Positions 8,572 to 51,145 of a stretch of DNA of 64,000 nt are shown one piece after another. The notes under the pieces were generated by a model. That model did no database searches. It worked only from the letters and a program-made list of their open reading frames with translations, and was not told where the DNA came from. The DNA is from an uncultured Rikenellaceae bacterium. Its GTDB lineage: Bacteria; Bacteroidota; Bacteroidia; Bacteroidales; VadinHA17. How positions within the stretch are numbered: position 1 is the first letter of the stretch; the number at the start of each line of letters is the position of its first letter. The stretch is taken from the NCBI GenBank assembly GCA_964446825.1, contig CAYUQR010000006.1, forward strand, positions 18,964-82,963, given 5' to 3'. A program made the position numbers and the translations under genes.

Positions 8572-8580
8572 ATTCTAATA

Positions 8581-9003: not shown

Positions 9004-9012
9004 ACTATATAT

Positions 9013-10230: not shown

Positions 10231-10242
10231 TTAATTTAAAGT

Positions 10243-12362: not shown

Positions 12363-12390
12363 ATTAAAGTATTGATGTATAAATATATTT

Positions 12391-13839: not shown

Positions 13840-14128
13840 CTGTTTGTTTTACATCCTATTCTATACCAGTTTAAACAAACCTGGGCACTATTTGTTATTT
13901 TCTTAATTATATTTAATCTAAATAAGCATGCAAAAATAAGAAAAATATAGGATTTGAGAGAGATACATACCGGAAAATTGATCACAAAAGAATATTTAAA
14001 ATTCTTATTCGATGTCTGTTAAATCAGGATACCCGATGATTAAATCAGATTATCCAAAGAAAAATATATTTACATTTGATGCCTTATTTAATTTCCCATT
14101 TAAAATATAGCTGAATATATCTCAACCG

Positions 14129-25009: not shown

Positions 25010-25309
25010 TCAATTAATTTTAATCTACAAAAGTATGAATTAGTTTTGAGAACGGAAACTAACTACCCGATCTCCCTTCCTGATACCTTAAACGAGATAT
25101 AATGGACTGAATTATTGATATTTCACTGCTTATAAAAACTAGTGTATGAAAACCCCTAAAATGATCTCATGGAATGATTCAAAAGGATAAATTTGTTTTT
25201 GTGTTTTAAAACATTAATTATTACTGCCACTTTTTGAAATAAAAGACGTCTTTAAAGGGTCAAATGCTAGTACGTTTCTTTTCTTTTTAACTTAACAGCA
25301 TATTTGCTA

Positions 25310-26203
25310 ATGAAGATTGAGATACAGGGGCTTAATAAGATTTACCCAAATGGTAATCATGCATTAAAAGATATAAACCTTGAATTCGGTACGGGGATGT
25401 TCGGGCTTCTTGGGCCCAACGGGGCTGGAAAATCGACCCTGATGAGAATTATTGTTACCCTCATGAAACCTTCTTCAGGAGTGGTAACGGTAGATGGCAG
25501 GGATATTCAGAAGTACAGAAAGGAGTTGCGAAGCATGCTTGGATATCTTCCTCAGGATTTCAGGTTTTTCACGTCACTTAAAACCTGGGAATTTCTCGAC
25601 TATTCAGGATCGCTTGCAGGATTGAAAAACAAGAAAGAGAGGATAAGCCAGGTCGACAGGCTTCTTGACCAGGTTGGACTTCTTGAAGTTCGCGACAGAC
25701 AGGCTAACAGGTTATCAGGAGGTATGAAACGGCGCCTGGGAATTGCCCAGGCACTTATTGGAAATCCGAAGATAATTGTTGTTGATGAGCCTACAACCGG
25801 TCTCGATCCTGATGAAAGGATCAGGTTCAGGAATATTCTGTCTCAATTGAGTCAGCATGATGTTACTATTATTCTCTCCACTCATATTGTTGGTGACATT
25901 TCTTCAACATGCCAGGGAATGGCCCTGTTAAACAAAGGGGAACTTGTCTTTTCAGGCTCACCAGAAAGCCTGGTAAAAAATGCGGAAGGCCATGTATTTA
26001 AGCTGAATCTTACTCAATATGAATACGACAGGGTTAAAGAACGTTATAATGTTATCTCTACCATCCCTGTTGAATCGGGATGGGAAGTGCAAATCGTTTC
26101 GGATGATTCTCCTGAGTACAGTTCAACCAGCATTATTCCAAATATTGAACATGCCTATGTTTATTTTATGGAACACAAATTACATGCTGACATAATTGAC
26201 TAA
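25310..26203 (+). CDS. ABC transporter ATP-binding protein (ABC-2 type)
   Basis: Walker A GPNGAGKST, Q-loop LPQDF, signature LSGGMKRR, Walker B IIVVDEPTTGLD, H-loop STHIV. The ORF track starts at TTG 25304; the ATG at 25310 (MKIEIQGL) is more likely. Confidence 0.9.
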   Translation: MKIEIQGLNKIYPNGNHALKDINLEFGTGMFGLLGPNGAGKSTLMRIIVTLMKPSSGVVTVDGRDIQKYRKELRSMLGYLPQDFRFFTSLKTWEFLDYSGSLAGLKNKKERISQVDRLLDQVGLLEVRDRQANRLSGGMKRRLGIAQALIGNPKIIVVDEPTTGLDPDERIRFRNILSQLSQHDVTIILSTHIVGDISSTCQGMALLNKGELVFSGSPESLVKNAEGHVFKLNLTQYEYDRVKERYNVISTIPVESGWEVQIVSDDSPEYSSTSIIPNIEHAYVYFMEHKLHADIID

Positions 26204-26217
26204 TAAAAAATACAGCT

Positions 26218-29200
26218 ATGGCATTTCTTCATAATATAAGAACGGTTGCAAGATATGAAGCCAAAACATTGAGAAGAAGCTGGTTTTTCAGGCTTTTCTC
26301 TATAGGGGCCCTGGTTATTTTCACATTTTTAAACATTGGGATGTTCTCTCCTGTCGGGGGTGAGCAGTGGAACCTTGTATCGATCTCTTCCTCAGTTCCG
26401 CTTATTAACCTTTACCTTTTGAACATAGGGCAGGCAATTGTTGTCATTTTCCTTGCTGCAGACTTTCTTAAAAGAGATAAAAAGCTTGATACTAATGAAG
26501 TCCTCTATACAAGGTCCATGTCAAATTTTGAATATGTAATAGGAAAAACATTGGGAATTCTACGTCTTTTCCTTGGACTTGATATAATAATCCTCTCAAT
26601 TGGCATGCTTATAAATATCATATCAAAAAGCATGACGGTAGATTTCATGTCGTATATTTCATATCTCCTTATAATAAGCGTACCTACAATTATTTTTAGC
26701 CTGGGACTGGCTTATATGCTTATGTCAGTGATAAAAAACCAGGCAATAACATTCCTTATTCTTCTTGGAATAGCTGCTCTTGATATGTTTTACCTGTGGT
26801 TCAGGATGGGATCCATCTTCGACTATATGGCTTTTGGAATGCCATTGTTCAAATCGGGGATTATAGGGTTTGACAATCCGGGTTTTATCATGAACCAGAG
26901 ACTTCTGTATCTCTTCCTGGGGATTGCGTTGGTACTATGTACAGTATTATTATTCAATCGATTACCCCAATCAAAATTACATAAAAACCTGACAATTATT
27001 TTCCTTGTTCTTTTCATTTCGGGAGCAGCTTTCTGCGGATATAATACCTATTCTGTTTACAGCAATAGTATTAAGGAAAAAAGCCTCACAATCGAAACCA
27101 ACAGACAATTTGAAAATAATGATTTTGCCACTCTCACTGATGCTTCAATTGAATTCATTCACCTGGGTGATAAATTTGAAGCTTCAGCTGACCTTAAAAT
27201 AAAAAATGACAACAAGGCCTCGCTCAATCATTACATTTTTTCTCTTAATCCATCATTGATAGTTCAAAAGGTAACATCAGCCGGAAAAGACCTGAATTTC
27301 AAAAGGTTAAATCAGATTATCGATGTTGATCCAGGGAAGATACTTGATCCCGGACAAACCGACAGTCTGCTTATATCCTATAAAGGTACTATTAACGAAT
27401 CTTTCTGTTATCCTAATTACAGTGATAATCTGAAAGAGAATCCTTACAGGATAGCTATGGTCAACGTTAATAAAAGACAGGCATTCCTGACACCTGACTA
27501 TCTGCTGTTAACCCCCGAGACTTATTGGTACCCGGTTACGTCGCTGAATTATTATCCTTCCAATCCTGCACGTATAAAGATTGATTTTACAAATTACACA
27601 CTTAGGGTTAAGAATGAAAAAGGGTTGACTGCAGTTTCCCAGGGAAGATCAAAAAATATTGAAGGGTACCGGGTTTTTAAACCGGAAAAGCCGCTGACAG
27701 GCCTCACCCTGGCTATTGGAAACTATAAAACTGATACACTCAAAGTAGATTCAGTACAGTACCTGAGCTACTATTTCCCCGGTCACGATTACTATAAAAA
27801 AGATCTTTCAGAGTTAAGAGATACTTTGAAAAACATGATATCAGGCATAATGAGAGAGCTGGAAACAAATTACTCAGTTAAATATCCTTTCAAAACATTA
27901 AGTCTTATTGAAGTTCCCGTTCAGTTCCATTCTTATCCGAAGGAAAGTACACAAACCAGGGCAGAGGTTCAGCCCTCGCTGGTTTTGTTGCCCGAGAAAC
28001 TCTCAACGCTCGATAATGCAGGTTTTTACAGGCAGTTCGTAAGGCAGAAGAAAAGAAATACAAGAAACAACCAGGTAATAACTGATAAAGAGCTACAGGT
28101 ACGGCTGTTTAATAATTTTATACGAAATACATTTATCAGCGGAGAAAACTTCAGGTTTACTAATGGTAATTTTGTTAATGAGCCGACAAGGTATCTTTTG
28201 GGGCCTAGTTTTTATTTTTTCAGGAACAATTTCTATTCCTCGGAATATCCGGTAATAAATGCAGTTTTCGAATCGCACCTCCAACAAATTAATATTAATA
28301 CCCGTAGCGGTGGTTTCCGTTCAATGTTTGGCATACTGACAGATAATGACAGAGCAAATCTTATTCTGAATAAAATAAGTTTCAGGGATCTGCTGACTAA
28401 AGATCCCAAAGGTGATACAATAAGAACAGTATTGAGAGTAAAAGGTGACTGGTTGTTTAACCTTTTAAGATCCAAAGCGGGAATAGATGAGTTTAAAACC
28501 TGGTTTGCCACTTACCTTGATAATCATAGCTTTAAGAAGGTTGATATAGAACTGTTCAATAATGATATTAAAGAAAAATTCGGATTCGATTTCTATCCTT
28601 TTCTTGACGACTGGTTTAACGGGAAAGAACAGCCGGGCTTTCTTTTCACGGATCTCAAAGCAAGCGAGATTATTGTTGGAGACAGATCGAGATACCAGGT
28701 TACTTTCACTGCTTCAAATCCCGAGACAGTTGCAGGTTTGTTCAATGTCTCTTTCCGTACCGGAGGACAAGGAGGTCAGGGAAGAGGAGGAGGACAGACG
28801 GCTATGTTTTTTCAGGGTGGCGGCGGTGGCGGCGGTGGAAGGTTCTCAATCTCAATGCAGGGCAGGGGGATGGAAGCCGAAGACATATCAAAAATTGTCC
28901 TGATGGGACCTCATGAAGCAAAAAGGATCGGAATAATAATTGATGCGCAACCCAGAGCCATGATGATCAACACCCTTTTTGCAAAAAATATTCCCGGAGA
29001 AATTACTTTGCCCATAAACGATATAATCAAAACCAGGGGAGTCGCAAAAGAATTCACCGGAGAGGAGATACTTACAGCAATGCCGCCTTTCACGGATCCT
29101 TCCGAGATTATTGTTGACAATGAGGATCCCGGATTTATAACCAGCAAACAAAATACTTCGAACCCTCTTAAAAGACTCCTGGGTATCCATAATAACAATG

Positions 29201-29682
29201 GAAAGACCTACCAGGAGTTAAGCATGATGTTCATTCCTGAATTCTGGCAACCTGTTGTACAAAGCTCTTACTATGGAAAGTATGTCCGTTCAGCAGTTTA
29301 CACACGTGGAGGCACTGGTGACAGATCAGTAACATGGTATACAATAATTAAAGAACCCGGGTATTATAATATATATAGTTATATCGGAAAGACTGCCGAC
29401 AGAATGATGATAAGGAGGGGTGGTCAGGGAAGAACTGGCGGACCGGGAGTTCCGGGCCAGGAGGAAAAACCGCCTGAAAGTCCATACAAGGATCAGCATT
29501 ATAAGATATACCACGATGAAGGAGTAGACGAAATAACTCTTGATTATGAAAACGCCGAAGGAGGCTGGAATAATCTTGGTAAATATTACCTCTCTCCCGA
29601 CACAGCTAAAGTTGTCCTGACAAATAAATCTGCAGGAAGAATTGTTATCGGAGATGCTATTAAATGGGTGAAACAGAACTGA
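26218..29682 (+). CDS. ABC-2 permease (about 7 TM) fused to a very large periplasmic ectodomain
   Basis: aa 1-275 contain seven hydrophobic helices and the ABC-2 loop motif (DKKLDTNEVLYTRSMS). The ectodomain layout recalls the permease/M1-aminopeptidase fusions of Bacteroidota, but I found no HEXXH. Gly-rich tracts lie at aa 847-884 and 1066-1086. The last ~60 aa (YKIYHDEG..GGWNNLGKYYL..IGDAIKWVK) look golvesin-C-like. Confidence 0.6.
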   Translation: MAFLHNIRTVARYEAKTLRRSWFFRLFSIGALVIFTFLNIGMFSPVGGEQWNLVSISSSVPLINLYLLNIGQAIVVIFLAADFLKRDKKLDTNEVLYTRSMSNFEYVIGKTLGILRLFLGLDIIILSIGMLINIISKSMTVDFMSYISYLLIISVPTIIFSLGLAYMLMSVIKNQAITFLILLGIAALDMFYLWFRMGSIFDYMAFGMPLFKSGIIGFDNPGFIMNQRLLYLFLGIALVLCTVLLFNRLPQSKLHKNLTIIFLVLFISGAAFCGYNTYSVYSNSIKEKSLTIETNRQFENNDFATLTDASIEFIHLGDKFEASADLKIKNDNKASLNHYIFSLNPSLIVQKVTSAGKDLNFKRLNQIIDVDPGKILDPGQTDSLLISYKGTINESFCYPNYSDNLKENPYRIAMVNVNKRQAFLTPDYLLLTPETYWYPVTSLNYYPSNPARIKIDFTNYTLRVKNEKGLTAVSQGRSKNIEGYRVFKPEKPLTGLTLAIGNYKTDTLKVDSVQYLSYYFPGHDYYKKDLSELRDTLKNMISGIMRELETNYSVKYPFKTLSLIEVPVQFHSYPKESTQTRAEVQPSLVLLPEKLSTLDNAGFYRQFVRQKKRNTRNNQVITDKELQVRLFNNFIRNTFISGENFRFTNGNFVNEPTRYLLGPSFYFFRNNFYSSEYPVINAVFESHLQQININTRSGGFRSMFGILTDNDRANLILNKISFRDLLTKDPKGDTIRTVLRVKGDWLFNLLRSKAGIDEFKTWFATYLDNHSFKKVDIELFNNDIKEKFGFDFYPFLDDWFNGKEQPGFLFTDLKASEIIVGDRSRYQVTFTASNPETVAGLFNVSFRTGGQGGQGRGGGQTAMFFQGGGGGGGGRFSISMQGRGMEAEDISKIVLMGPHEAKRIGIIIDAQPRAMMINTLFAKNIPGEITLPINDIIKTRGVAKEFTGEEILTAMPPFTDPSEIIVDNEDPGFITSKQNTSNPLKRLLGIHNNNGKTYQELSMMFIPEFWQPVVQSSYYGKYVRSAVYTRGGTGDRSVTWYTIIKEPGYYNIYSYIGKTADRMMIRRGGQGRTGGPGVPGQEEKPPESPYKDQHYKIYHDEGVDEITLDYENAEGGWNNLGKYYLSPDTAKVVLTNKSAGRIVIGDAIKWVKQN

Positions 29683-29759
29683 AGAAAGAAAGGGTGAGGG
29701 GGAGAAATGGAGAGGGGGAGAAAGAGAGAAAGGGAGAAAAGGAGAATATGGGATGACCT
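29680..29759 (+). repeat. C-free polypurine tract built from 8-nt GAnnnGGA units
   Basis: 29688-29751 reads gaaagggt gaggggga gaaatgga gaggggga gaaagaga gaaaggga gaaaagga gaatatgg in one register. There is no C between 29681 and 29756. Confidence 0.6.
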
Positions 29760-29770
29760 TCCGTTAGGAT

Positions 29771-29800
29771 CCCCTCCCGGGAGGGGTTAGGGGTGGGTTT
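29771..29800 (+). other. GC hairpin (perfect 16-nt palindrome) followed by a G-run
   Basis: CCCCTCCCGGGAGGGG at 29771-29786, then TTAGGGGTGGGTTT. It sits between the large permease gene and the TolC-like gene. Confidence 0.5.
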
Positions 29801-29879
29801 AAACCTGGAGAAAGAGTGGAAGCCCTCGAAAAAGAACAAACGAATTTAGAATTAAGAATGAACATATAAGAATAACAGA

Positions 29880-31367
29880 ATGAAAATAAGAACAAATAAG
29901 AAAATCAGGACCAGCCTTTTGATACTGATATTGTTGCTCACCAATATGCTCTCTTCCAGTGCCCAGACAGGACTTACACTCGAACAGGCATTAAGTATTG
30001 CAGAGACTAATAGTCCTACGATTAAAAAAACCCGTCTGAATCTGATCAGGAGCCAGGAAAATCTGAATGCCCAGAATGCTGCACTAAAATCGAACTTCTC
30101 GCTCACTGTTAACCCTATAGGTTACAACCAGAGCAGAAATTTTAACGACCTTATTTCAAAATGGAACACAACAACAACCACAACCAGTTATGGAGTATTC
30201 ACTGTTTCCCAGCCAATTGTCCTGACTGATGCCAGAATTTCGCTGACGAACAGTTTTGGATATACTGATTCATACAGCGAATATGCGAACATCACTACAA
30301 AAGGATTCAGCAATAATCTTACGCTATCGATTGATCAGCCGCTTTTTACTTATAACAGGACAAAACTGCAGCTCAAAGAGCTTCAACTGGCACTTGAGAA
30401 TGCCCAGCTTAATTATGCAATTCAGCTCCTCTCATTGGAGAATAATGTGACCCAGGCATTTTACGCAGTTTATCAGGCCCAGCAGAGCCTTGATATTGCT
30501 GACCAGGCTTACCAGAACATGCAAAAAAGCTATGAGATCTCCAAAAATAAAGTTAATGCCGGCATTTCAGCACAGTCAGAAATTTTCCAGGCTGAAGTGA
30601 ACCTTGCTACAACAAGGTCTGATTATGAAAACAAGCAGGTTGCCTTTGAAAATGCAAAGGATAACTTTAAAATACTTGTGGGGATGGATCTTTATGATGA
30701 TATTATTGTCATACCAAACATTGCTGTCGATACCGTAAAGGTAGATATAGCATTTGCCATTGATCAGGGACTCGCAAACAGGATGGAATTAAGGCAAAGT
30801 CAGATATCAATTGAAACATCGGAATTTGATCTTATTCAGACCAAGGCACTTAATGAATTCAAGGGTGATCTGGGACTTTCAATCGGACTTTCCGGAGATA
30901 ATCCCAAATTAGGAAATATCTATGCAAAACCAACTGATAACCAGAATGTTGCCTTGTCACTGACTATTCCATTATGGGACTGGGGTGAACGAAAATCAAG
31001 GATAAAGGCAAGCGAGGCAACTATTGAATCAAATAAAATTGACTTCACTTCCGAACAGAATAATATTATTTTAAACATCCGACAGACTTACAGGAATCTT
31101 AATAACCTGAAAAATCAGATAGAGATAGCAGAACAATCAGTTAAAAATGCTCAGCTGACATACGATTTGAATCTAGAAAAATATAAAAACGGAGACCTCA
31201 CCGGGATGGATCTGAATATATATCAGAACCAGCTTTCTGAAAACAAGCTCAATTACACAAATTCATTAATCTCCTATAAGCTAGAACTTCTTAATCTTAA
31301 AATACAGACTCTTTACGATTTTGAAAAGAAACAACCTGTTATTCCGGTAAAGACATTAAAACAGTAA
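29880..31367 (+). CDS. TolC-family outer membrane efflux protein
   Basis: Signal peptide, then LTLEQALSIAETNSPTIKK and two repeated helical/beta halves typical of OMF proteins. Confidence 0.85.
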   Translation: MKIRTNKKIRTSLLILILLLTNMLSSSAQTGLTLEQALSIAETNSPTIKKTRLNLIRSQENLNAQNAALKSNFSLTVNPIGYNQSRNFNDLISKWNTTTTTTSYGVFTVSQPIVLTDARISLTNSFGYTDSYSEYANITTKGFSNNLTLSIDQPLFTYNRTKLQLKELQLALENAQLNYAIQLLSLENNVTQAFYAVYQAQQSLDIADQAYQNMQKSYEISKNKVNAGISAQSEIFQAEVNLATTRSDYENKQVAFENAKDNFKILVGMDLYDDIIVIPNIAVDTVKVDIAFAIDQGLANRMELRQSQISIETSEFDLIQTKALNEFKGDLGLSIGLSGDNPKLGNIYAKPTDNQNVALSLTIPLWDWGERKSRIKASEATIESNKIDFTSEQNNIILNIRQTYRNLNNLKNQIEIAEQSVKNAQLTYDLNLEKYKNGDLTGMDLNIYQNQLSENKLNYTNSLISYKLELLNLKIQTLYDFEKKQPVIPVKTLKQ

Positions 31368-31377
31368 AATAAGTACC

Positions 31378-32430
31378 ATGAAAAAAAATATATTTGTTTT
31401 TCTTGCCATCGTTTTTGCTGCTGTAAGTTGCAAAAACGATACTCAGAGTCTCAGCGCCGATGTTGAAATCCCTGTTTCTGTACAGGACGTCACGCTGAAG
31501 TCTATTGAAGAATTTGTTAATACGTCAGGAACTGTTTATCCTAAAGGCGATATTGAACTAAAATCTGAGATCACTGCCAATTATTTCCTTGAAAAGAATC
31601 CGAGAACCGGTAAATCCTGGCAATTAAATGATAAAGTTATTGCGGGTGATCTTATAGCCAGATTAGAGGACAGGGAATATATTAATTCCATTAAAATGGA
31701 GACAACCCGGCTTAATCTTGATCTTACAGAGAGTGAACTAAAAAAACAGGAATCACTATATGAAAAAGGAGGAGTTACTCTCAATGACCTGAAAACAGCG
31801 GAAATAAATAATGCGAATGCCAAAACCAACCTGGAAACAGCTAATCTGCAGATGGCAAAAACAAGAATTGTTGCGCCAATAGACGGAGTAATAGTTGACC
31901 TGCCGTATTATACCCAGGGTACCCAGGTGCAAACAGGATCATCTATAGTGAAGATTATGGATTACAAAACAATGTATATGGATGTTCAGTTGCCTGAAAA
32001 ATATATTTCAGTAATTAAGCCCGGGCAAAAGGTTAAACTTACAAATTATACGATTCCAGAAGATACAATAATGGGTAATGTAACTCAGCTGTCTCCTGCA
32101 ATTAATCCTGACACAAGAACCTTTAAAGGCTATATTTCAGTTAGCAATACCAATTTTCTGCTTCGTCCCGGGATGTTTGTAAAAGCTGATATTGTTACCA
32201 ACCATAAAGATTCTGTTATAGTTATTCCAAAGAGTATTATTCTCTCCCGCCAGAGAGGGAAAACAGTATTTATCGTTGATCGTGGTGTTGCCGCTGAAAG
32301 AATTATTGAGACCGGTCTTGAAAATCTGACTGAAGTTGAAGTTACAAAAGGACTGATGAAAAACGAACGCCTGGTGACAAGTGGCTTTGAAACTCTCAGT
32401 AACAGGTCAAAGGTAAAAATCATTAAATAA
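31378..32430 (+). CDS. efflux transporter periplasmic adaptor (membrane fusion protein), lipoprotein
   Basis: Lipoprotein signal (LAIVFAAVSC), a coiled-coil hairpin, and lipoyl/beta-barrel motifs (IVAPIDGVIVDL, PGMFVKADI). Confidence 0.85.
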   Translation: MKKNIFVFLAIVFAAVSCKNDTQSLSADVEIPVSVQDVTLKSIEEFVNTSGTVYPKGDIELKSEITANYFLEKNPRTGKSWQLNDKVIAGDLIARLEDREYINSIKMETTRLNLDLTESELKKQESLYEKGGVTLNDLKTAEINNANAKTNLETANLQMAKTRIVAPIDGVIVDLPYYTQGTQVQTGSSIVKIMDYKTMYMDVQLPEKYISVIKPGQKVKLTNYTIPEDTIMGNVTQLSPAINPDTRTFKGYISVSNTNFLLRPGMFVKADIVTNHKDSVIVIPKSIILSRQRGKTVFIVDRGVAAERIIETGLENLTEVEVTKGLMKNERLVTSGFETLSNRSKVKIIK

Positions 32431-32435
32431 GCGAC

Positions 32436-35400
32436 ATGAACAGGATTGCCCAATTTGCTGTAAAATATCCCGTTACTGTTTTAATGCTGGTTCTTGGGAT
32501 AGTTCTCCTGGGATTTATATCTTTTGGTAAACTTGGAACAGATCTCTTTCCCGATCTTAACAACCCAAAGATCTTTATTGAGCTTAAAGCGGGCGAGAAA
32601 CCACCTGAAGAGATCGAAAAAAATTATGTTGACCAGATTGAATCTCTTTCGTTGCGCCAGAGTGGCGTAGTGGAGGTATCATCAGTTTCTCAGGTTGGAA
32701 CTGCCACGATAACAGTTGAATATGACTGGAACAAGGATATGGATGAAGCCTTTCTTGATCTTCAGAAAGAGCTCAATTCTTTCCGTCAGAATTCCGACCT
32801 TGAAGACCTTACAATATCGCAATACGATCCGAATGCATCACCTGTAATGATATTAGGCCTCAGAAACAAGAGCATTACTAATCTCGATGATATAAGGAAA
32901 GTGGCCGAAAACTATATCAGGAATGAGTTGGTAAGAATCGAAGGCATTGCTGATGTGAAACTTACAGGAGTTGAGGAGAGCGAAGTTGTTATTGAAACAA
33001 ATAAATATGTTCTTGATTCGTACGGTCTCACCTCTGACGCTATTGCAGCACAGATCAGCAATTACAACAGGAATGTTTCCGGCGGGTCGATTGTGGATAT
33101 GGGCCTTAAATATGTTGTTAAAGGAGTAAGTGTGCTTAAAGATATAAATGACCTGCAGAATATTGTTGTCGGGTTTAAACAGCCGGCATCTTCTGCATCG
33201 GTTTCAGGACAGACAGCCGCTGCCTCATCTGTCTCCGACAGGGTGCCTGTCTATCTCAAAGATGTTGCAACTATAAAATATGAGAATAAGGATCCCCGGA
33301 ACATTGTTACAATTAATGGGGAACGCTGCATCGGCTTATCCATATACAAAGAACCGAAATTCAATACCGTAGATGCAGTAAAGAGTCTGCAGGCTGCAAT
33401 CAAGGATCTTGAAAAAGCCTTGCCCGGATATGAATTTATAAAGGTTTCGGACCAGGGAAGTTATATCCATAATGCAATTGGGGAAGTTAAAAACACTTTA
33501 CTTATCGGAATATTCCTGGCAATATTTGTAATTTATATTTTCCTCAGAAGGATAGGTACTACCCTGGTCATAAGTGTTGCGATTCCGGTTTCGATAATTG
33601 CCACCTTCAACCTGATGTATTTTGATCATCTCACCCTTAATATCATGACTCTTGGAGGGCTGGCGCTGGGTGCCGGAATGCTGGTCGATAATGCTATAGT
33701 GGTACTTGAAAATATTACCAGAAACCGTGAAGAAGGCATGCCTTTAAAGGAAGCGGTTATAAAAGGAACAGGAGAAGTGGGAGGAGCTATTACAGCCTCA
33801 ACCGTAACCACTATTGTTGTTTTTCTTCCGATTGTCTACCTCCATGGTGCTTCAGGTGAAATGTTCAAGGATCAGGCATGGACAGTAGCTTTTGCGCTTC
33901 TTTCTTCCCTTGTGGTGGCTATGCTTGTTATTCCCATGCTTGTTTCAACATTATTCTCCGAAAAAAATGGAAAGGCCGATACAAGCAAGTCAATCCATTT
34001 TAAATGGTATAAAAGCTCTCTTGAGAAAATTGTTGAAAAAAGGAATCTGGTAATTTTACTGGCTTTGGTTTTAATGGGAGCGACTGCATTACTTATACCA
34101 AAACTTGGAAGTGAGTTCATGCCAAAATCCGAATCAGCTGAATTCACCATTGATATTAAACTGCCGGAAGGAACCAGTCTTGCCCGAACCGAAAGTACAT
34201 CCATTGAAGCGGAAAACGTTATCAGGGAACTGTTAGACAATAAAATTAAAATGATATATTGCCAGGCAGGGACAGATAACACAACGACTACAGAGCAGTC
34301 TGCTGAAACTACCGGGGAAAATACTGCTTCCCTGAAAGTGATCCTTGCTGACAACTTTGCCTCCAAAACGGAAGAAGCCATCGCTATTGTCGGGAATTAT
34401 CTTAAAACAGTTCCGGATATGGAAGTAACATTCAAGAGAGAAGAAACTGCTCTGCAGTCATCTCTTGGAACAGATGAAGCTCCTTTTACACTTGAAATAT
34501 CCGGAAAAGATTACGCCGAACTCGAAAGAATAGTTAATGAATCCAAAGCTATTCTGATGAACAATTCCGGTCTTTACAACCTTACAACATCCCTGGATGA
34601 GGGCACACCTGAGGTGGATGTGGCAATTGACAGATTTAAAACAAGTTACTACAATGTAACAGTTGAAAGCATTATCAACCAGTTAAAAAGTTACCTGGCC
34701 GGAGCTTCCGCGGGGAGTTTTGAGAAAGATGGCGAGATGAAAGATATCACCATCAAGCTTGGAGATATATCACTTCAACAATTGCACGATCTTATGATAA
34801 CTGCAGGTACAGTAAAAGTGCCCCTGAGCGAACTGGCCTCCATCCGGACAGTTCTCACCCCCAGGGAGATCACAAGAAGGAATCAGGCCAGAACATGCTA
34901 TGTCTATGCTATGGTAAACAGCAAGATACCATTTGACAAAGTAATAAGGCAAGCCCGGGAATCTCTCAAATCCATTATAATGCCTGTTGATTATAAGATG
35001 GAATTTACGGGAGAAGAACTTAAAAGAAAAGAATCGATGTCTAATCTCACTTTTGCTCTTACCCTGTCGCTGATTCTTGTTTTTATGGTTCTGGCAGCAC
35101 AGTTTGAATCGTTGATACAACCATTCATAATAATGCTGACTATTCCATTAGCGGGTGTAGGTACGGTTCTTACCTTCTTTCTTTTAGACAAGTCGTTGAA
35201 TATGATGGCCTATATAGGGATTATTATGCTTGGCGGGATTGCCGTAAACAATGCGATAATTCTTATCGACCGGATCAACCAGCTAAGGGAAGCAGGAATG
35301 CAAAAGAAGGAAGCGATAGTCCTTGCCGGTACACAGAGGATAAGGCCTATCCTTATGACCAGTCTCACGACTATCCTGGCCCTTCTTCCCCTTACCATAG

Positions 35401-35561
35401 GAATAGGAGAAAGTGCGTCACTGAGATCTCCTATGGCGCTTGCTGTAATTGGAGGCATGATTTCATCCACTCTTCTCACGCTTGCGGTGATCCCATGTGT
35501 ATACTGGGTTTTTGACAGCTTCAGCAAGTGGTTAACAGGTGCAAATAAACAGATTCTATAG
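32436..35561 (+). CDS. RND efflux permease, paralog 1
   Basis: 12-TM AcrB-like pattern: TM4 GAGMLVDNAIVVLENI, TM10 GGIAVNNAIILIDRI, TM11 RIRPILMTSLTT. Confidence 0.9.
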   Translation: MNRIAQFAVKYPVTVLMLVLGIVLLGFISFGKLGTDLFPDLNNPKIFIELKAGEKPPEEIEKNYVDQIESLSLRQSGVVEVSSVSQVGTATITVEYDWNKDMDEAFLDLQKELNSFRQNSDLEDLTISQYDPNASPVMILGLRNKSITNLDDIRKVAENYIRNELVRIEGIADVKLTGVEESEVVIETNKYVLDSYGLTSDAIAAQISNYNRNVSGGSIVDMGLKYVVKGVSVLKDINDLQNIVVGFKQPASSASVSGQTAAASSVSDRVPVYLKDVATIKYENKDPRNIVTINGERCIGLSIYKEPKFNTVDAVKSLQAAIKDLEKALPGYEFIKVSDQGSYIHNAIGEVKNTLLIGIFLAIFVIYIFLRRIGTTLVISVAIPVSIIATFNLMYFDHLTLNIMTLGGLALGAGMLVDNAIVVLENITRNREEGMPLKEAVIKGTGEVGGAITASTVTTIVVFLPIVYLHGASGEMFKDQAWTVAFALLSSLVVAMLVIPMLVSTLFSEKNGKADTSKSIHFKWYKSSLEKIVEKRNLVILLALVLMGATALLIPKLGSEFMPKSESAEFTIDIKLPEGTSLARTESTSIEAENVIRELLDNKIKMIYCQAGTDNTTTTEQSAETTGENTASLKVILADNFASKTEEAIAIVGNYLKTVPDMEVTFKREETALQSSLGTDEAPFTLEISGKDYAELERIVNESKAILMNNSGLYNLTTSLDEGTPEVDVAIDRFKTSYYNVTVESIINQLKSYLAGASAGSFEKDGEMKDITIKLGDISLQQLHDLMITAGTVKVPLSELASIRTVLTPREITRRNQARTCYVYAMVNSKIPFDKVIRQARESLKSIIMPVDYKMEFTGEELKRKESMSNLTFALTLSLILVFMVLAAQFESLIQPFIIMLTIPLAGVGTVLTFFLLDKSLNMMAYIGIIMLGGIAVNNAIILIDRINQLREAGMQKKEAIVLAGTQRIRPILMTSLTTILALLPLTIGIGESASLRSPMALAVIGGMISSTLLTLAVIPCVYWVFDSFSKWLTGANKQIL

Positions 35562-35589
35562 CTCCGATAATCTTCTTACAAAAAAGAAA

Positions 35590-38500
35590 ATGAATTTTAT
35601 TTTAAAAAGAAGAATCCTTATAAGCATGCTCTTTCTGGGGCTTACTATGCTTGGTTACGTGTCTTATAAGAAATTATCAGTAGAGCTTTTCCCTAATGCA
35701 CAGCTTCCGGCTCTTATTGTCCAGGTGGTCACACCTCTCGAAGTGGACCCTTCCTATATTGAAAATCAAGCTATTATTCCTATTGAAGGTGCTGTTGGAA
35801 CTCTTGAAGGCATTGAAAAGATCGAATCAAATATTACCTCCCGTTCCGGTATAATAATGATCTATTACAACCAGAATGCAAACCTGAAGTATGCTAATCT
35901 TAAACTGCAGGAAAAAATTGATGTAGTAAAAAGTTCAATCCCTTCGGAATTTGTAATAAATGTTATTAAGATTGACCTGGAACAGCTTACCAATCAGTTC
36001 ATGGAACTGCAGGTAAGAGGCGAGGGAGGGATTGACAGGATAAGAAATTTTGCCGACAGGGAAATAAAACCGGCATTTGAAAATATCGATGGTATAGCCG
36101 GGGTCCAGGTCTATGGCGGACAGGAGAACTCTATTGAGATCAGGCTTAATGAAAAAGCCTGCAAGGCTAATGGCATATCGATAGGTCAGATAAGGACCCT
36201 GCTGAATAACAACGGGACCAGCAAAACATTTGTCGGGAAAGTTGTTGATGGAAGCAATAAATTCTTTGTGAACGTAACCTCAGATTATACTGATGTAAAA
36301 GAAATCGGAAACATTATTGTAAAGCCTTCCGGACCGATACTCTTAAGGGACATAGCCGATATCTTTTTCGGGGTAAAGGAACAAACATCCTATAGCAGGG
36401 TGAACGGACTTGATGCCGTAACCGTAAGCCTTGTAAACGACAACCAGGCAAACCTGATAGATCTATCACATAAAGCCATTAAAGAGGTCAACGATCTGAA
36501 TAAAACCCTTGCCTCGTCAGGTGTTGAGATTGTTGTTCAGAACAACAATGCGGAAATAATGGAAAGAAATATAAATCAGATCATACACCTTGCAATTACA
36601 GGAGGATTGCTGGCTGTTTTAATCCTCTGGTTCTTCCTAAGGAATATCCGTCTTGTAACAATAATTGCTGTTTCAATACCTGTTTCGGTGTATGCTGCAT
36701 TTAACTTTTTCTATGCTTTCGACGTATCAATTAACAGTCTTACTCTTGTGGGGATGGCTCTGGCCATAGGTATGCTCGTGGATAATTCTGTGGTGGTTCT
36801 TGAGAATATATACCGGCTTGCGGGCCAGGGAAAGAACCCCGACATAGCTGTCAAACAAGGGACCAGCGAAGTATGGAGATCAATATTTGCCGCAACATTA
36901 ACAACAATTATCGTATTTCTTCCTTTTATCTTCTCAGCCAATTTTATGGTGAGAATGATAGGTAAAAATATTGGAGTTTCCATCATTTCCACACTGGTCA
37001 TTTCTCTCTCGGTTGCCTTGCTTCTTATACCCATGGCAACATACTTTCTGCTCACCCGGTCAGCATACAGCAATTCTGAAATATTTAAAAAACTATCCAT
37101 CCACGACAAGCTCATTCAAGCTTATCATCTCGTTCTTAAAGCAAGCATGAGAAATCCGGCGGGGACTATCATCGGAACCCTTGTCGTCTTTTTTGCTGCA
37201 CTTCTTATAAGCCTCACATTAAGCATTAACACAACACAGGAGGTAGAGACGCCTAATTTCAGACTTACTGTTACCATGCCTGGAGGATCAACGCTAGAAA
37301 AAACCGATGCGGTTGTTGCAGAAATAGAATCGAGGCTGGCATCGCTGCCTGAAAAAGAAGACATCATCAGCAAAATTGAAGAAGATAAAGCCACGGTAAC
37401 AATTAACCTTTCAAAAGACTGGGATAAAAAAAGCAAAAGGACCCTGCCTGAAATCAAAAATGACATCTCTGAAAAGACAAAGAATATATCAACTGCGGAA
37501 GTCAACATGGATGAATTGTCGACAAGTGGCGGATTCTCAGGCGGTGGAGGTAGTGATGAAACTTATAACCCGGGTTCTGACTTTATGAACCTTCTGGGTA
37601 TCGGTTCCACAAAAGAGAGTATAATAATAAAAGGCCAGAACTTTGAACAAATGAAGAACCTGGCAGATGACATTAAATCATATCTCGACAATCTTTCAAC
37701 CATCAACAGCTCAAGTGTAAATGTTCAGGATAATAAACCTGAGGTCCATCTGAACTTTGACATGGATTACATAGGAAGAAATAATTTCACGCTCAACAAT
37801 TTATCATCTGCCCTTGCAACATTTGGACAGGAATACTCATCAGGAGCTACTTTCAAGCAGGGAACGGAAAATTATGATATTATGATAAAATATGCTGATG
37901 AGTCGGGAGCTCTAAAAGAAAACAAGGATAAAACGATAGATGATCTCAAGCACCTCGAAGTAAGCAGCAGCAGCGGGACACTTATGGAGATGCAGGAGCT
38001 TTCCAATATTGTATTCTCCACAGGTATGGGTAATATTCACAGGGAAAACCAGGAGAAAAGAGTAACTGTAACTTATAGCTTCAACGATGAAATAAAAAAC
38101 TCCAAAGATCTGCTGGAAGGAGCAAGACTGGGAATTGAATCAATTGTTGCAGGACTGAATATTCCTTCAGGGATTGCTGTAGAGGTAGTCCATGAGGAAG
38201 ATCAGCTTAAAGACTTCTATTACCTGATAGGAGTAGCTTTTCTTCTGATTTATATGATTCTTGCCGCTGTTTTTGAGTCACTCGCTACTCCTGTAGTATT
38301 AATGTTCAGCATCCCTCTGGCTGCACTCGGATCGCTTATAGCACTTATATTAACAGGCAATACCCTGTTAAGCGCCAACACCCTGACCGGTTTTCTGATC
38401 CTGCTGGGAGTAGTTGTAAATAACGGGATAATCCTGATCGATTATACAAATATTTTACGGAAACGTGGAAACCGTATGCACCGGGCTCTTATGACTGCAG

Positions 38501-40377
38501 GAGTTTCAAGATTGCGCCCAATCCTTATAACAGCATCAACCACTATTGTTGCAATGATCCCCCTGGCAATGGGACAGGCTGAATATGTGTCTGCAATAGG
38601 AGCCACATTTGCAATTACGGTTATTGGAGGATTGTCTTTAAGCACCCTCCTTACACTCGTTTTTATCCCAACTTTTTATACAGGACTTGAGAACGCCTTG
38701 ACATGGTTCTATTCATTGAACTGGAAAACCAAAATTATCCAGTTCATTTTACTGGCTATTCTGATATTCTTTATCTACACATACATAGATAAATTCCTCT
38801 GGAAGCTCATTACCACAATTCTTGCAGTTATTCTGGTTCCGGCAGCAACATGGTTCGTAATGAACAGCCTGAGAAAAGCCAGGGAAACGGTAATTGCACC
38901 GGATGAACCTATTAATATTTACATTCAGAGCCTGGTGAAGATCTATGAAAGAGAAAACCGCTGGATAAGAGAGTGGAAAGCCGGGGCAAGGATAAGAAAA
39001 AGGCTTGGCATCGAGAAACAATATAAATCGTGGAAAGATCTTGGCCAGCTTACATGGCAGGTCCCGTTGCTTGGCTTCATTTTTTATTTTACCTATTTCT
39101 ATCTCCACAAGGGATTCTGGATTTTCCTGTTCAGCATTGCAACATGGTTCTACTTATCAGGTGTATGGACAATCATCAAAGGACTTTTCAAAACACTTAC
39201 AAATGAGGAAAAACGGAAATGGCTCAAAAATATAACCAGGATCATCGATATATCAGTTTTCTGGATAATTCCAGTTCTGAACCTTATCTGGTTCCAGGTG
39301 AAATGGGATAATATTGTGGTTGTACTGATCCTTGGCTTTATCTGGTTCTCCGGCCTCTTTATCTACAAAACAGGACAAAAACTCACCAGGGAAAGCATTG
39401 ATATCTACAGGCTTGAAGGAAAGTTCAAAGGGGTCAGAAAAACTGTTTATAAGATCGTAGCAGCAGTTCCCCTCATTGGTAAAAAGAAAAAACCGTTCAA
39501 AGCATTAAGTTGTGTTTCCCTGAACATCGGTAATGGTATGTTTGGACTTCTGGGCCCTAACGGTGCAGGAAAAACCACTCTTATGAGAATAATCTGCGGA
39601 ATACTGGAACAGAGTTATGGAAAGGTTTGGATCAATGGACTCGATACCCAGAAAATGAGAGAAGAACTCCAGGGCCTTATAGGATATCTGCCGCAGGAAT
39701 TCGGGAGTTATGAGAATATGACGGCTAATGAATATCTTCATTACCAGGCTATGCTGAAAAATATTATTGATGCCAGAACCAGGGAAGAGAGAGTTACATA
39801 TGTCCTCCAGGCGGTACATATGGAAGAAAGAAGGCATGATAAAATAGGTTCTTACTCTGGTGGAATGAAACAGAGAATGGGCATTGCCCAGATTCTGCTT
39901 CATCTCCCCAGGATTCTTGTTGTTGATGAACCAACAGCAGGACTCGATCCGAGGGAACGAATCCGGTTCAGAAATCTGCTGGTTGAGTTAAGCCGTGAAA
40001 GAGTTGTTATTTTTTCGACACACATTATTGAAGATATTTCCAGCTCATGCAACCAGGTAGCAGTGCTGAATAAAGGAAGATTAAGATACCTCGGGACTCC
40101 AATCGACATGACATTAGAGGCTGAGGGACACGTATGGCAGTTTAATATCCCGGCAGATGAGTTTGGAACATTTGTTGAAAATCATCTTGTTGTGCATCAT
40201 ATGTCGGAAGGGAATAATGTCAGGGTCAGGGTAATCTCTGAGTTTTCTCCATGGGAGGGAGCAATAAATGCCCTGCCTAATCTGGAAGATGCTTACCTGT
40301 GGCTCTTAAGGAAAAAAGATATTAACGGATCTGCAATTAACAAAACATCTGAAAATGAAAACAAATCGCATATATAA
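35590..40377 (+). CDS. fusion protein: RND efflux permease (paralog 2) + six extra TM helices + ABC ATPase domain
   Basis: Uninterrupted 1612-aa ORF (track 35539..40377; Met18 at 35590, MNFILKRRIL, is the likely start). The RND module spans aa 18-~1055 (LVDNSVVVLEN, VVNNGIILIDY, RLRPILITASTT). Hydrophobic helices lie at aa ~1065-1108 and ~1175-1276. The NBD has Walker A GPNGAGKT (39553-39576), signature SGGMKQR (39856-39876), Walker B ILVVDEP (39913-39933) and H-loop STHII. Confidence 0.75.
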   Translation: MNFILKRRILISMLFLGLTMLGYVSYKKLSVELFPNAQLPALIVQVVTPLEVDPSYIENQAIIPIEGAVGTLEGIEKIESNITSRSGIIMIYYNQNANLKYANLKLQEKIDVVKSSIPSEFVINVIKIDLEQLTNQFMELQVRGEGGIDRIRNFADREIKPAFENIDGIAGVQVYGGQENSIEIRLNEKACKANGISIGQIRTLLNNNGTSKTFVGKVVDGSNKFFVNVTSDYTDVKEIGNIIVKPSGPILLRDIADIFFGVKEQTSYSRVNGLDAVTVSLVNDNQANLIDLSHKAIKEVNDLNKTLASSGVEIVVQNNNAEIMERNINQIIHLAITGGLLAVLILWFFLRNIRLVTIIAVSIPVSVYAAFNFFYAFDVSINSLTLVGMALAIGMLVDNSVVVLENIYRLAGQGKNPDIAVKQGTSEVWRSIFAATLTTIIVFLPFIFSANFMVRMIGKNIGVSIISTLVISLSVALLLIPMATYFLLTRSAYSNSEIFKKLSIHDKLIQAYHLVLKASMRNPAGTIIGTLVVFFAALLISLTLSINTTQEVETPNFRLTVTMPGGSTLEKTDAVVAEIESRLASLPEKEDIISKIEEDKATVTINLSKDWDKKSKRTLPEIKNDISEKTKNISTAEVNMDELSTSGGFSGGGGSDETYNPGSDFMNLLGIGSTKESIIIKGQNFEQMKNLADDIKSYLDNLSTINSSSVNVQDNKPEVHLNFDMDYIGRNNFTLNNLSSALATFGQEYSSGATFKQGTENYDIMIKYADESGALKENKDKTIDDLKHLEVSSSSGTLMEMQELSNIVFSTGMGNIHRENQEKRVTVTYSFNDEIKNSKDLLEGARLGIESIVAGLNIPSGIAVEVVHEEDQLKDFYYLIGVAFLLIYMILAAVFESLATPVVLMFSIPLAALGSLIALILTGNTLLSANTLTGFLILLGVVVNNGIILIDYTNILRKRGNRMHRALMTAGVSRLRPILITASTTIVAMIPLAMGQAEYVSAIGATFAITVIGGLSLSTLLTLVFIPTFYTGLENALTWFYSLNWKTKIIQFILLAILIFFIYTYIDKFLWKLITTILAVILVPAATWFVMNSLRKARETVIAPDEPINIYIQSLVKIYERENRWIREWKAGARIRKRLGIEKQYKSWKDLGQLTWQVPLLGFIFYFTYFYLHKGFWIFLFSIATWFYLSGVWTIIKGLFKTLTNEEKRKWLKNITRIIDISVFWIIPVLNLIWFQVKWDNIVVVLILGFIWFSGLFIYKTGQKLTRESIDIYRLEGKFKGVRKTVYKIVAAVPLIGKKKKPFKALSCVSLNIGNGMFGLLGPNGAGKTTLMRIICGILEQSYGKVWINGLDTQKMREELQGLIGYLPQEFGSYENMTANEYLHYQAMLKNIIDARTREERVTYVLQAVHMEERRHDKIGSYSGGMKQRMGIAQILLHLPRILVVDEPTAGLDPRERIRFRNLLVELSRERVVIFSTHIIEDISSSCNQVAVLNKGRLRYLGTPIDMTLEAEGHVWQFNIPADEFGTFVENHLVVHHMSEGNNVRVRVISEFSPWEGAINALPNLEDAYLWLLRKKDINGSAINKTSENENKSHI

Positions 40378-41071
40378 TATTTTTAATCTCATATATAAGA
40401 TGATCATCTATAACCTGCGGATCATCTTTGCGAACCGGTTCATCTGGTTTCTGGCCGGTTCAGTCCTGTTCTATCTCGGATTATCAGTTATTTATGTTTT
40501 TGATACAGATGTTGCAAATATGAGTGACATGTATGAAGTGTTACTCTTTCCTGGCATTCTTCTGGTTTTCTATCCTACTGTTTTCGGAATACAGAATGAT
40601 CAGGATGCAAGAACGATTGAGATTCTTTTCGGAATTCCCAACTACAGGTATAAGGTCTGGCTTGTAAGGATTGTGCTTATTTTTGCGATCGCCTTTTTGA
40701 TAATACTGGTATTCACCTTTCTTTCTTCTTTACTAATTGTTAAATTTCAAATTTTAAATATGACCGTGCAGGTAATGTACCCCGTTATATTTCTTGGCAC
40801 TATGGCATTCATGCTGTCCACTGTAGTAAGAAGCGGAAATGGCACAGCGGTTGTTATGATCATCTTTGGGTTATTCTTTTTGATACTGAGTGACGGGCTC
40901 CGTAAAAGCCAGTGGAATGTATTTTTAAATCCGTACGGGCTTCCATACGATGTCAATGAAACTACATGGGCAATAATAACTCTTAAAAACAGAATTATAC
41001 TAATGACGGGTATACTGGTGTTCCTGCTTGCCGCTCTTTACAATCTGCAGAAAAGGGAGAAATTCATGTAG
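40355..41071 (+). CDS. small ABC-2 type transporter permease (6 TM)
   Basis: Six hydrophobic helices and the ABC-2 loop motif (QDARTIEILFGIPNYRYKVW). The track start overlaps the upstream stop by 23 nt; the alternative start ATG 40400 removes the overlap. Confidence 0.5.
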   Translation: MKTNRIYNIFNLIYKMIIYNLRIIFANRFIWFLAGSVLFYLGLSVIYVFDTDVANMSDMYEVLLFPGILLVFYPTVFGIQNDQDARTIEILFGIPNYRYKVWLVRIVLIFAIAFLIILVFTFLSSLLIVKFQILNMTVQVMYPVIFLGTMAFMLSTVVRSGNGTAVVMIIFGLFFLILSDGLRKSQWNVFLNPYGLPYDVNETTWAIITLKNRIILMTGILVFLLAALYNLQKREKFM

Positions 41072-41078
41072 GATGTAT

Positions 41079-41198
41079 GTCTTGCGGTCTTGCAGTCTTG
41101 CGGTCTTGCGGTCTTGCGGTCTTGCTATCCTCCGGTCTTTGCTTCATTCCGATGAACCATTGCGCCTCTGCGCCTTTGTGCCTTTGCGCCTTTGCGCC
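41079..41198. repeat. 120-nt GC-rich island of 15 consecutive 8-nt units in a single register
   Basis: The units are gtcttgcg gtcttgca gtcttgcg gtcttgcg gtcttgcg gtcttgct atcctccg gtctttgc ttcattcc gatgaacc attgcgcc tctgcgcc tttgtgcc tttgcgcc tttgcgcc. The island fills the gap between two convergent genes. Confidence 0.7.
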
Positions 41199-41200
41199 TT

Positions 41201-49700: not shown

Positions 49701-49702
49701 TT

Positions 49703-51082: not shown

Positions 51083-51145
51083 AATATTAAGAATTAAGTA
51101 ATCTATTTCAGATTTGATTTTCTGATCGTTGACAATTCATCAAAT

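Follow-up and report, generated by a model that had tools for sequence, protein, structure and literature searches.

An RND permease covalently joined to an ABC-2-class ATPase in a conserved seven-gene locus of uncultured Bacteroidales

Tripartite pumps are classed by a single inner-membrane engine, which is of the resistance-nodulation-division (RND), the ATP-binding cassette (ABC) or the major facilitator superfamily (MFS) type. In a stretch of 64,000 nucleotides from an uncultured Rikenellaceae bacterium (contig CAYUQR010000006.1; hereafter called the window), seven adjacent genes, designated p1 to p7 in this study, encode parts of both the RND and the ABC kinds. One of them, p6, encodes an RND permease that continues into an ABC ATPase of the ABC-2-related class. 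Since a conserved RND permease is covalently joined to an ABC-2 ATPase in this way, the single-engine classification is broken.

MdtABC-TolC and MuxABC-OpmB resemble the locus in having two tandem RND genes beside the genes for an RND-type adaptor (membrane fusion protein, MFP) and an outer-membrane factor (OMF). A heterotrimeric MdtBC is noted in PMC8277102. The MdtB and MdtC equivalogs are among the NCBIfam matches of the locus, all with scores far below the cut-offs. In contrast to MdtABC and MuxABC, one RND paralogue in the window is extended by an ABC ATPase and six additional transmembrane (TM) helices, the conserved gene set includes ABC-2 genes, and the positions of D408 and K940 are occupied by Asn in both paralogues. 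NosDFY, DrrAB(C), YbhGFSR, and RbbA-YhhJ-YhiI share with the locus the class of the nucleotide-binding domain (NBD) and a small, separate ABC-2 permease with six TM helices. DrrC is an ABC-2 permease, and YbhGFSR and RbbA-YhhJ-YhiI of E. coli pair ABC-2 exporters with an MFP. The locus differs from this group in that an NBD is fused to an RND permease and split by a four-helix insertion, while p2 carries a C-terminal ectodomain of ~850 aa after its seventh TM helix.

The likeness to the export of phthiocerol dimycocerosate (PDIM) is functional only; an RND protein and an ABC-2 transporter (MmpL7 and DrrABC) serve one envelope lipid, and PDIM export in M. tuberculosis needs both MmpL7 and DrrC (PMC1238737). 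By analogy, PDIM export is the clearest precedent for RND/ABC-2 cooperation, although its components are separate polypeptides with an MmpL-class RND protein, without MFP or OMF, and in a different envelope. In MacAB-TolC, an ATPase is genetically tied to an adaptor and a TolC-like duct, as in the window. However, in the window there is no periplasmic domain between TM1 and TM2, the adaptor is of the RND type, and the set includes RND permeases. Pfam found no FtsX or MacB_PCD match in any of the seven proteins, and on this ground a MacB-type pump was rejected. Thus, the comparison with MacB-type exporters that had been made in the first-pass annotation of this DNA is not apt, since the ABC parts are ABC-2/type V-like and not FtsX/MacB-like.

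The seven open reading frames (ORFs) are co-directional and occupy positions 25310-41071, the first ORF opening at 25304. The protein domain content was assigned with Pfam and NCBIfam. The genes and the one long spacer are as follows.

25310-26203, plus strand: p1, free ABC ATPase, 297 aa from ATG (the ORF opens at TTG 25304)
26218-29682, plus strand: p2, membrane protein with a large ectodomain, 1154 aa
29683-29879, plus strand: p2-p3 spacer, 197 nt
29880-31367, plus strand: p3, TolC-like OMF (Pfam OEP)
31378-32430, plus strand: p4, RND-type periplasmic adaptor, MFP (TIGR01730 RND_mfp)
32436-35561, plus strand: p5, unfused RND permease, 1041 aa, full-length Pfam ACR_tran
35539-40377, plus strand: p6, RND permease fused to ABC ATPase, 1612 aa from GTG or 1595 aa from ATG 35590
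40355-41071, plus strand: p7, small protein with six TM helices, 238 aa

All the ORFs reported in the first-pass annotation are present, and Pfam and NCBIfam agree with the part types given there for p1 and p3-p6. The intergenic distances are 14 nt (p1-p2), 197 nt (p2-p3), 10 nt (p3-p4), and 5 nt (p4-p5). p5 and p6 overlap by 23 nt if p6 starts at the GTG or are separated by 28 nt if it starts at ATG 35590. The latter is likely the start codon of p6 because the homologues begin there, aligning from about residue 19. p6 and p7 overlap by 23 nt, and p7 is presumably translationally coupled to p6. The tight spacing with a single 197-nt exception that had been described for the locus was thus recovered, save at the p5-p6 junction, where the ATG start would leave the 28-nt gap.

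The p6 protein can be divided into five parts.

35590-38688, plus strand: RND domain, residues 18-1050 (ACR_tran 5.5e-157 at residues 18-1048, profile positions 2-1018 of 1021)
38722-38874, plus strand: two extra TM helices, residues ~1062-1112, directly after RND TM12 (predicted from hydropathy and AlphaFold2, AF2)
38908-39003, plus strand: displaced NBD beta-1 strand INIYIQSLVKIY, residues 1125-1136, on the cytoplasmic side, and an amphipathic helix
39031-39393, plus strand: four-helix TM insertion, residues ~1165-1285, inside the NBD beta1-beta2 hairpin (predicted from hydropathy and AF2)
39427-40377, plus strand: remaining ABC ATPase and C-terminal domain (ABC_tran 2.7e-27 at residues 1328-1467; Walker A at 1339-1346)

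Between the RND domain and the ATPase there are six extra TM helices in total, which the first reading of the sequence had missed. In an AF2 model of 573 aa, the extra TM pair corresponds to helices 23-43 and 47-73, with a predicted local distance difference test (pLDDT) value of ~70-88, and the insertion corresponds to helices 126-149, 153-185, 188-217, and 220-246 (pLDDT 78-85). The displaced strand aligns with the N-terminus of p1 (IEIQGLNKIY) and with every class of fusion. In the alignments, L93, V94, K95, and Y97 of the p6 beta-1 region are invariant, and in the AF2 model a low-confidence strand covers 88-90. After the insertion, the NBD resumes ~40 residues before Walker A. The four-helix insertion has invariant Trp, Pro, and Gly positions. 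In a short-linker class of fusions without the insertion, ~45 residues with no TM segments lead from beta-1 to the rest of the NBD. The long form of p6 is best described as having a putative four-helix membrane insertion in the beta1-beta2 hairpin of its NBD. This topology rests mainly on the sequence alignment, because the AF2 model is of moderate confidence (pLDDT 72) with a beta-1 region of low confidence.

Is the fusion real, and how widespread is it? One uninterrupted p6 frame of more than 1500 aa is present in 58 of the 84 related loci that were fetched, and the remaining loci are mostly cut by contig ends, N-gaps, or reading-frame breaks. At least 570 species genomes match the family. 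In an exhaustive search over 1.84 billion representative sequences, I found full-length fusions of ~1550-1600 aa as separate clusters at 50% identity. By local BLAST, the RND C-terminal end and the NBD lie in a single chain in 59 of the 150 best 50%-identity representatives. Among them, 39 are full-length; 30 have a linker of 226-269 aa bearing TM-like segments, and in the other nine the linker measures 50-114 aa and is free of TM segments. The RND identity to p6 drops to ~24% among the fused representatives, and Pfam finds both the RND and the ABC domains in every representative tested. One member of the fusion family, from candidate division KSB1, was deposited as a "hypothetical protein".

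The initial homologue search, in which the p6 junction and the ATPase were used, had yielded proteins having PF00873 and PF00005 together, all of which were shorter than 1000 aa. The shorter native p6 protein suggested by these matches was ruled out by the N-gaps and frame breaks found on the contigs. The p6 reading frame is fragmented in the locus designated L001, while the apparent split in L002 is a scaffolding N-gap with duplicated flanks. No naturally unfused arrangement turned up, and the short matches that were inspected are fragments from contig ends or gaps. It is exceedingly improbable that the 1612-aa ORF is an artefact, namely a sequencing frameshift or an assembly chimera of an RND gene and an ABC ATPase gene. 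Such an artefact would explain why that one search gave only fragments below 1000 aa and why several loci have broken frames. However, most of the breaks lie at contig ends, N-gaps, or frame breaks, the frame is intact in 58 independent assemblies, the 39 full-length representatives were found at 50% identity, and an identical p2 occurs on an independent Logan contig, where p1 adjoins it. Thus, neither an assembly error nor a frameshift accounts for the fusion.

The closest genomes are metagenome-assembled genomes of uncultured Bacteroidales, and the proteins of one such locus (L005) are ~82-95% identical to those of the window. The family is abundant in environmental Bacteroidales and is also found in other lineages, including the KSB1 contig and high-GC contigs of unknown phylum. 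One contig labelled "Chloroflexota bacterium" (L032; JBLNAO010000361.1) carries p3-p7 with proteins 72-85% identical to their Bacteroidales counterparts; mis-binning of a Bacteroidales contig is more probable here than transfer. Many public gene models of the family are truncated or split at N-gaps or frame breaks, and the truncated models are named "efflux RND transporter permease subunit, partial" or "ATP-binding cassette domain-containing protein, partial". Other public names are "ABC-type multidrug transport system ATPase" and "hypothetical protein". Since the public annotation is generic and split, the fusion is hidden from annotation-based surveys.

The gene set around the fusion is conserved as well. 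I fetched 80 species-representative loci with 10-kb flanks, in which p1 lies just outside the flank. Every fetched locus that extends far enough has the genes in the order p2-p3-p4-p5-p6-p7, down to ~55% identity, and the adjacency of the adaptor and OMF genes to the RND genes is also conserved among the fetched loci. Thus, the gene order described for the window was found again in related genomes. Had the ABC and RND parts lain at unlinked loci in the relatives, the idea of a combined system would have suffered, but the opposite was observed; they are linked, fused, and co-inherited. A p7-type gene directly follows p6 in 80 of the 80 species loci as well as in L089, L090, and L092. Of the six distant fusion loci that were checked, five have an ABC-2 permease gene of this type after the fusion.

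In more distant loci, the parts are kept in various combinations. L092 (74% GC) encodes an ATPase, a p2-like protein of 1179 aa with Golvesin_C, an MFP, an RND permease, an RND/NBD fusion, and the product of a 245-aa gene. The genes are joined by 4-nt overlaps, there is no OMF gene, and the proteins are 21-50% identical to those of the window. L093 (53% GC) has a p2-like gene followed by those for an MFP, an RND permease, and an RND/NBD fusion, and the KSB1 contig has genes for an MFP, an RND permease, an RND/NBD fusion, and a p7-like gene. In L088 (positions 2057-14326, with Planctomycetes-like neighbours), none of the seven part types is missing, but their order is changed: MFP, free NBD, small Pfam-positive ABC-2 permease, RND permease, p2-like protein of 902 aa, RND/NBD fusion, and OMF. 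The adjacency is swapped relative to the window, in that the free NBD gene lies by the small permease gene and the p2-like gene lies by the fusion gene. Therefore, a four-component heteromeric ABC unit fits better than two unrelated pairs, which hints that the two ATPases and the two permeases may form one heteromeric unit. L089 has the fusion gene plus a Pfam-positive ABC2_membrane_2 gene alone, with MFP and OMF absent, and L091 has the fusion alone with no p7-type gene. Since L089 holds just those two parts, the minimal conserved pair is the RND/NBD fusion and the small ABC-2 permease. The second ATPase and the p2-type permease are co-inherited with the fusion in at least four lineages, and the OMF usually is. 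What is established, then, is which domains the proteins contain, that the fusion is real and conserved, and that the parts are inherited together across deep divergence.

The free ATPase p1 matches Pfam ABC_tran at 4e-32; it and the p6 NBD share 44% identity and a C-terminal domain of ~70 aa. Both have a canonical Walker A, a Q-loop, an SGGM signature, a Walker B DEP with the catalytic Glu, and an H-loop. Their NCBIfam class is DrrA/GldA/RbbA-like, and the best matches of p1 are drrA and GldA, each below its cut-off. The best Foldseek matches of the p6 NBD are ABCA4/ABCA1, NosF of NosDFY, and TM_1403, with LptB lower. The NBDs belong to the type V, or ABC-2-related, class. A GldA/GldF/GldG identity was considered since the host belongs to Bacteroidota and GldA is a top NCBIfam match; it was rejected, as TIGR03522 gives 191 bits to p1 and 173 bits to the p6 NBD against a cut-off of 402.6.

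The unfused RND permease p5 matches ACR_tran at 4e-220 over profile positions 1-1020 of 1021 and is 27% identical to the RND domain of p6. Its best relative of solved structure is MdtB (9lyq_B, 4e-94). With MdtB as the best relative and two paralogues side by side, the pair resembles MdtBC and MuxBC. The proton-relay positions were read from an alignment with E. coli AcrB, MdtB, and MdtC. D408 and K940 of AcrB are replaced by Asn in both p5 and p6, while D407, R971, and T978 are kept, so that p5, for example, has D407, N408, N940, R971, and T978. Thus, the full AcrB-type relay (D407/D408/K940/R971/T978) is not present in p5 or p6. The same was seen in 19 RND domains of the family, fused or free, down to ~24% identity; all have Asn at 940 and Asn at 408 (once Ser), D407 and T978 are found in 19 of 19, and R971 in 18 of 19 (once Gly). 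A loss of the proton relay peculiar to the fused copy was rejected, since p5 and p6 carry the same variant. As judged from the alignment, the Asn/Asn variant characterises the whole family rather than the fused copy in particular, and it is compatible both with proton coupling and with its absence. The outer-membrane component p3 has a signal peptide and matches Pfam OEP at 8e-53 in three stretches, with TIGR01844 and TIGR01845 below their cut-offs. The adaptor p4 scores 181 bits with TIGR01730 against a cut-off of 94.9 and also matches Pfam HlyD_D23 and HlyD_3; its N-terminus (...AAVSC) suggests a probable lipoprotein.

The small membrane protein p7 has six hydrophobic segments and no direct match in Pfam or NCBIfam. 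Its family profile gave chance matches to opsins and MscS alone when compared with the sequences of PDB. On the other hand, the same profile matches the PF12679 (ABC2_membrane_2)-positive gene of L089 with an hhalign probability of 94%, and the L092 orthologue of p7 matches ABC2_membrane_3 at 8e-5. p2 has seven predicted TM helices at residues ~21-298 behind an amphipathic N-terminal helix, followed by the predicted ectodomain. According to AF2, there are six TM helices and one extra, and therefore the C-terminal domain would be periplasmic. The TM domain of p2 has no direct Pfam match, and one p2 homologue was annotated by the Joint Genome Institute (JGI) as a NosY-type permease. Other public names of p2 homologues are "hypothetical protein" or obvious mis-annotations. 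No signal was obtained by hhalign between the p2 TM domain and p7, so paralogy of the two cannot be claimed. The first-pass annotation had called both proteins ABC-2 permeases. The label is reasonable for p7, where it comes through the family profile, and plausible for p2, where it comes through sub-threshold matches of homologues; the connection is indirect for both.

The sole Pfam match of p2 is Golvesin_C at residues 1091-1151 (nt 29488-29670; 2e-10). In a Foldseek search with a model of pLDDT 55, the top matches of the ectodomain are nearly all M1 aminopeptidases at E ~1e-10, with TM-scores of ~0.15-0.35, and include ERAP1, IRAP, PSA, a Deinococcus M1 enzyme, and tricorn F3. The p2 family profile weakly matches the M1 aminopeptidase 3cia (E 0.25). 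The likeness to M1 zinc aminopeptidases such as ERAP1, IRAP, aminopeptidase N, and ColAP thus consists of low-confidence fold matches; unlike these enzymes, the p2 domain lacks the zinc and exopeptidase motifs and is fused behind a 7-TM domain. A regex search found neither HExxH-x18-E nor GxMEN in p2, in the 902-aa protein of L088, or in the L092 homologue, and any HExxH string occurs in 3 of 63 members of the p2 family. Since both catalytic motifs are missing, the idea of an active M1 peptidase was rejected, and the ectodomain would be a pseudo-peptidase if the fold assignment holds. The suggestion made earlier that it might process an exported peptide is thus not supported, despite the M1-like fold. 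The ectodomain of p2 is broken by Gly/Gln/Arg-rich stretches of low complexity at residues ~849-887 and ~1059-1089, such as GGQGGQGRGGGQ...GGGGGGGG; disorder is predicted for these stretches, which differ in length from one homologue to another.

It is proposed that the locus encodes one composite envelope exporter of an unrecognised, widespread family, with a probability of roughly 0.5. The core would be the p6 RND permease, continuing via the two extra TM helices into the ABC-2/type V-class ATPase, and the small ABC-2 permease p7 would be the cognate partner of this ATPase. p5, pairing with p6 in an MdtB/MdtC-like manner, the adaptor p4, and the duct p3 would complete a tripartite pump. The free ATPase p1 and the permease p2 with its putatively dead M1-peptidase-like ectodomain would provide a second ABC-2 half. 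The ATP-driven ABC-2 unit, which may be a heteromer of p1, the p6 NBD, p2, and p7 or else two homodimers, would move an amphipathic or lipid-like substrate from the cytoplasm or the inner leaflet to the periplasmic face. There, the tethered RND trimer would capture the substrate and expel it via p4 and p3 using the proton gradient, and the p2 ectodomain may serve as a periplasmic binding or scaffold domain. The hand-over is modelled on the cooperation of inner-membrane pumps with tripartite pumps, which is established (PMC4338810), and on the pair of MmpL7 and DrrC (PMC1238737).

Several points weigh against the composite exporter. I infer which way the substrate moves and what it is, how the relay works, and in what stoichiometry the parts combine; co-assembly beyond the tether is likewise read from the genes. 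RND permeases are trimers and ABC transporters are dimers, and therefore the stoichiometries do not match. There would be two ways round the mismatch: two p6 subunits per trimer, or one p6 NBD paired with p1. The pairing of the p6 NBD with free p1 is hinted at by the gene arrangement of L088. From the contents of L089 and L091, the RND-adaptor-OMF genes and p1/p2 are not obligatory near the fusion. Given the 197-nt spacer in the window, p3-p7 may be transcribed separately. Among the neighbouring genes within the window, there is no biosynthetic gene that points to a substrate. The AF2 model of p2 is of low confidence overall (pLDDT 55), with a well-predicted beta-sandwich at 305-390, and the TM domains of distant p2 homologues match ABC2_membrane_4 (4.6e-4) and ABC2_membrane_2 (0.05) below the threshold.

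The composite exporter could also take a stronger form, in which a heteromer of p1, the p6 NBD, p2, and p7 would be built into a p5/p6 RND heterotrimer as a single dual-energised trans-envelope machine with ATP and the proton gradient coupled. It would provide an obligatory two-step route from the cytoplasm through the periplasm to the exterior for an envelope lipid or amphiphile. Alternatively, ATP might gate an RND pump whose relay is one Asp-Arg pair. This stronger form is tentative and on the whole somewhat doubtful.

It is unlikely, though worth serious weight, that an ordinary two-paralogue RND tripartite pump and one or two ordinary ABC-2 exporters are merely co-localised and mechanistically independent, serving the same pathway or stress, with the fusion being a "Rosetta stone" of co-expression or co-localisation that involves neither substrate hand-over nor energetic coupling. 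Each module looks complete in itself, with its NBD motifs, a full-length RND permease, and its own ABC-2 permease; p7 is the only part found beside the fusion in L089, and none is found beside it in L091. The linker, which is ~240 aa and TM-rich or 50-114 aa and TM-free, suggests a tether rather than a precise coupling element. However, the fusion has been maintained to ~24% RND identity and in at least 570 species, and no naturally unfused arrangement turned up among the inspected matches. Furthermore, the full part set is co-inherited even where its order is shuffled, and the four-helix insertion of the NBD is conserved with invariant Trp and Pro, all of which argues for something more than co-localisation.

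The ABC parts may instead act on the RND pump itself. In an ATP-gated or ATP-assisted RND pump, the fused NBD, via p7 and the inserted helices, would drive or license the RND cycle, partly replacing or regulating the proton coupling. The Asn/Asn pair at D408/K940 across the 19 RND sequences (with one Ser at 408) would fit such a pump, as would the wiring of the NBD into the membrane beside RND TM12 by six extra helices. Other RND classes function with relay sets unlike that of AcrB. This mechanism seems quite unlikely, because D407 and T978 are kept in all 19 sequences and R971 in 18, so that a single Asp-Arg relay is possible, because p5 has the same variant and no NBD, and because a dedicated ABC-2 permease is the normal partner for such an ATPase. 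The ABC parts might also form a mechanotransmission or sensor module, as in NosDFY, FtsEX, and BceAB, with the work of ATP passing through the p2 ectodomain, for example, for loading, remodelling, or sensing the RND substrate. The very large pseudo-enzyme ectodomain of p2 with Golvesin_C points in this direction, and so do NosF among the closest structural matches of the NBD and the NosY-type name given to one p2 homologue by JGI. Such a module is nevertheless very unlikely, given that p1 and p2 are missing beside the fusion in the KSB1 contig and in L089, that the ectodomain model is of low confidence, and that no regulator or two-component genes flank the locus.

The modules of the locus are of known kinds; their covalent combination, the split NBD, and the architecture of p2 are new variations on these. 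Domain-architecture databases probably list the RND-ABC combination already. The mixture of RND and ABC parts in one locus and one polypeptide had been thought to be undescribed, and indeed no description of an RND-ABC fusion was found in the accessible open-access literature, including the accessible text of a tripartite-pump review of 2021 in Chem Rev. The family offers a natural test of the long-standing model of RND capture from the periplasm or the outer leaflet after delivery by an inner-membrane pump. Two structural features are worth study: the NBD split by a membrane insertion, and the 7-TM ABC-2-like permease with a putatively dead M1-like ectodomain.

The spacer between p2 and p3 has 3.7 copies of a purine-rich 16-nt tandem repeat (AGAAAGGGAGAGGGGG) at 29687-29745, as identified by Tandem Repeats Finder (TRF), and a perfect palindrome, CCCTCCCGGGAGGG, at 29771-29786, of which none are expected by chance. 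In 56 related loci, p2 and p3 overlap by as much as 23 nt or lie up to 703 nt apart (median distance 62 nt), and in the L005 spacer (positions 516-1220) the same repeat is expanded to ~700 nt. When the locus was scanned against Rfam at E<=1, a single chance-level match was obtained, and it lay outside the spacer. The spacer varies too much among relatives to be a conserved regulatory element, a reading that was rejected; the comparisons point to hypervariable repeat DNA rather than a conserved boundary. The overlap of p2 and p3 in relatives argues that the p1-p7 set was ancestrally a single operon. Within the spacer, the repeat is followed by the palindrome and then by a GGGGTGGGTT tail. The palindrome and tail motif recurs in the same spacer of several other genomes (L009, L018, L019, L025, L026, and L069), like a small element of the repetitive extragenic palindromic (REP) type.

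A scan of positions 24800-41400 found 49 sigma-70 promoters against 43 in shuffled sequence, which is uninformative. Bacteroidota promoters follow a consensus other than the sigma-70 type. A scan for intrinsic terminators over the same positions was likewise uninformative (17 against 13 in shuffled sequence). The flanks of the locus are an ordinary chromosomal region. Downstream are genes for a radical SAM protein, rimP-nusA-infB, maltose utilisation genes, and sprA. The larger neighbouring features are as follows.

21187-22584, 22703-23749, and 23756-25009, minus strand: lipid A cluster with an lpxC-fabZ fusion gene and lpxD, plus an HD-domain gene
47694-55667, minus strand: maltose/starch utilisation block with two genes of glycoside hydrolase family 13 (GH13), GH65, a haloacid dehalogenase (HAD) phosphatase, and an MFS transporter
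55784-63223, minus strand: SprA, type IX secretion translocon, 2479 aa (SprA_N 1.8e-207)

SprA and the maltose/starch genes appear to be ordinary Bacteroidota genes unrelated to the exporter. The lipid A and HD-domain genes are transcribed divergently from p1, and lpxA lies further upstream by synteny with L085.

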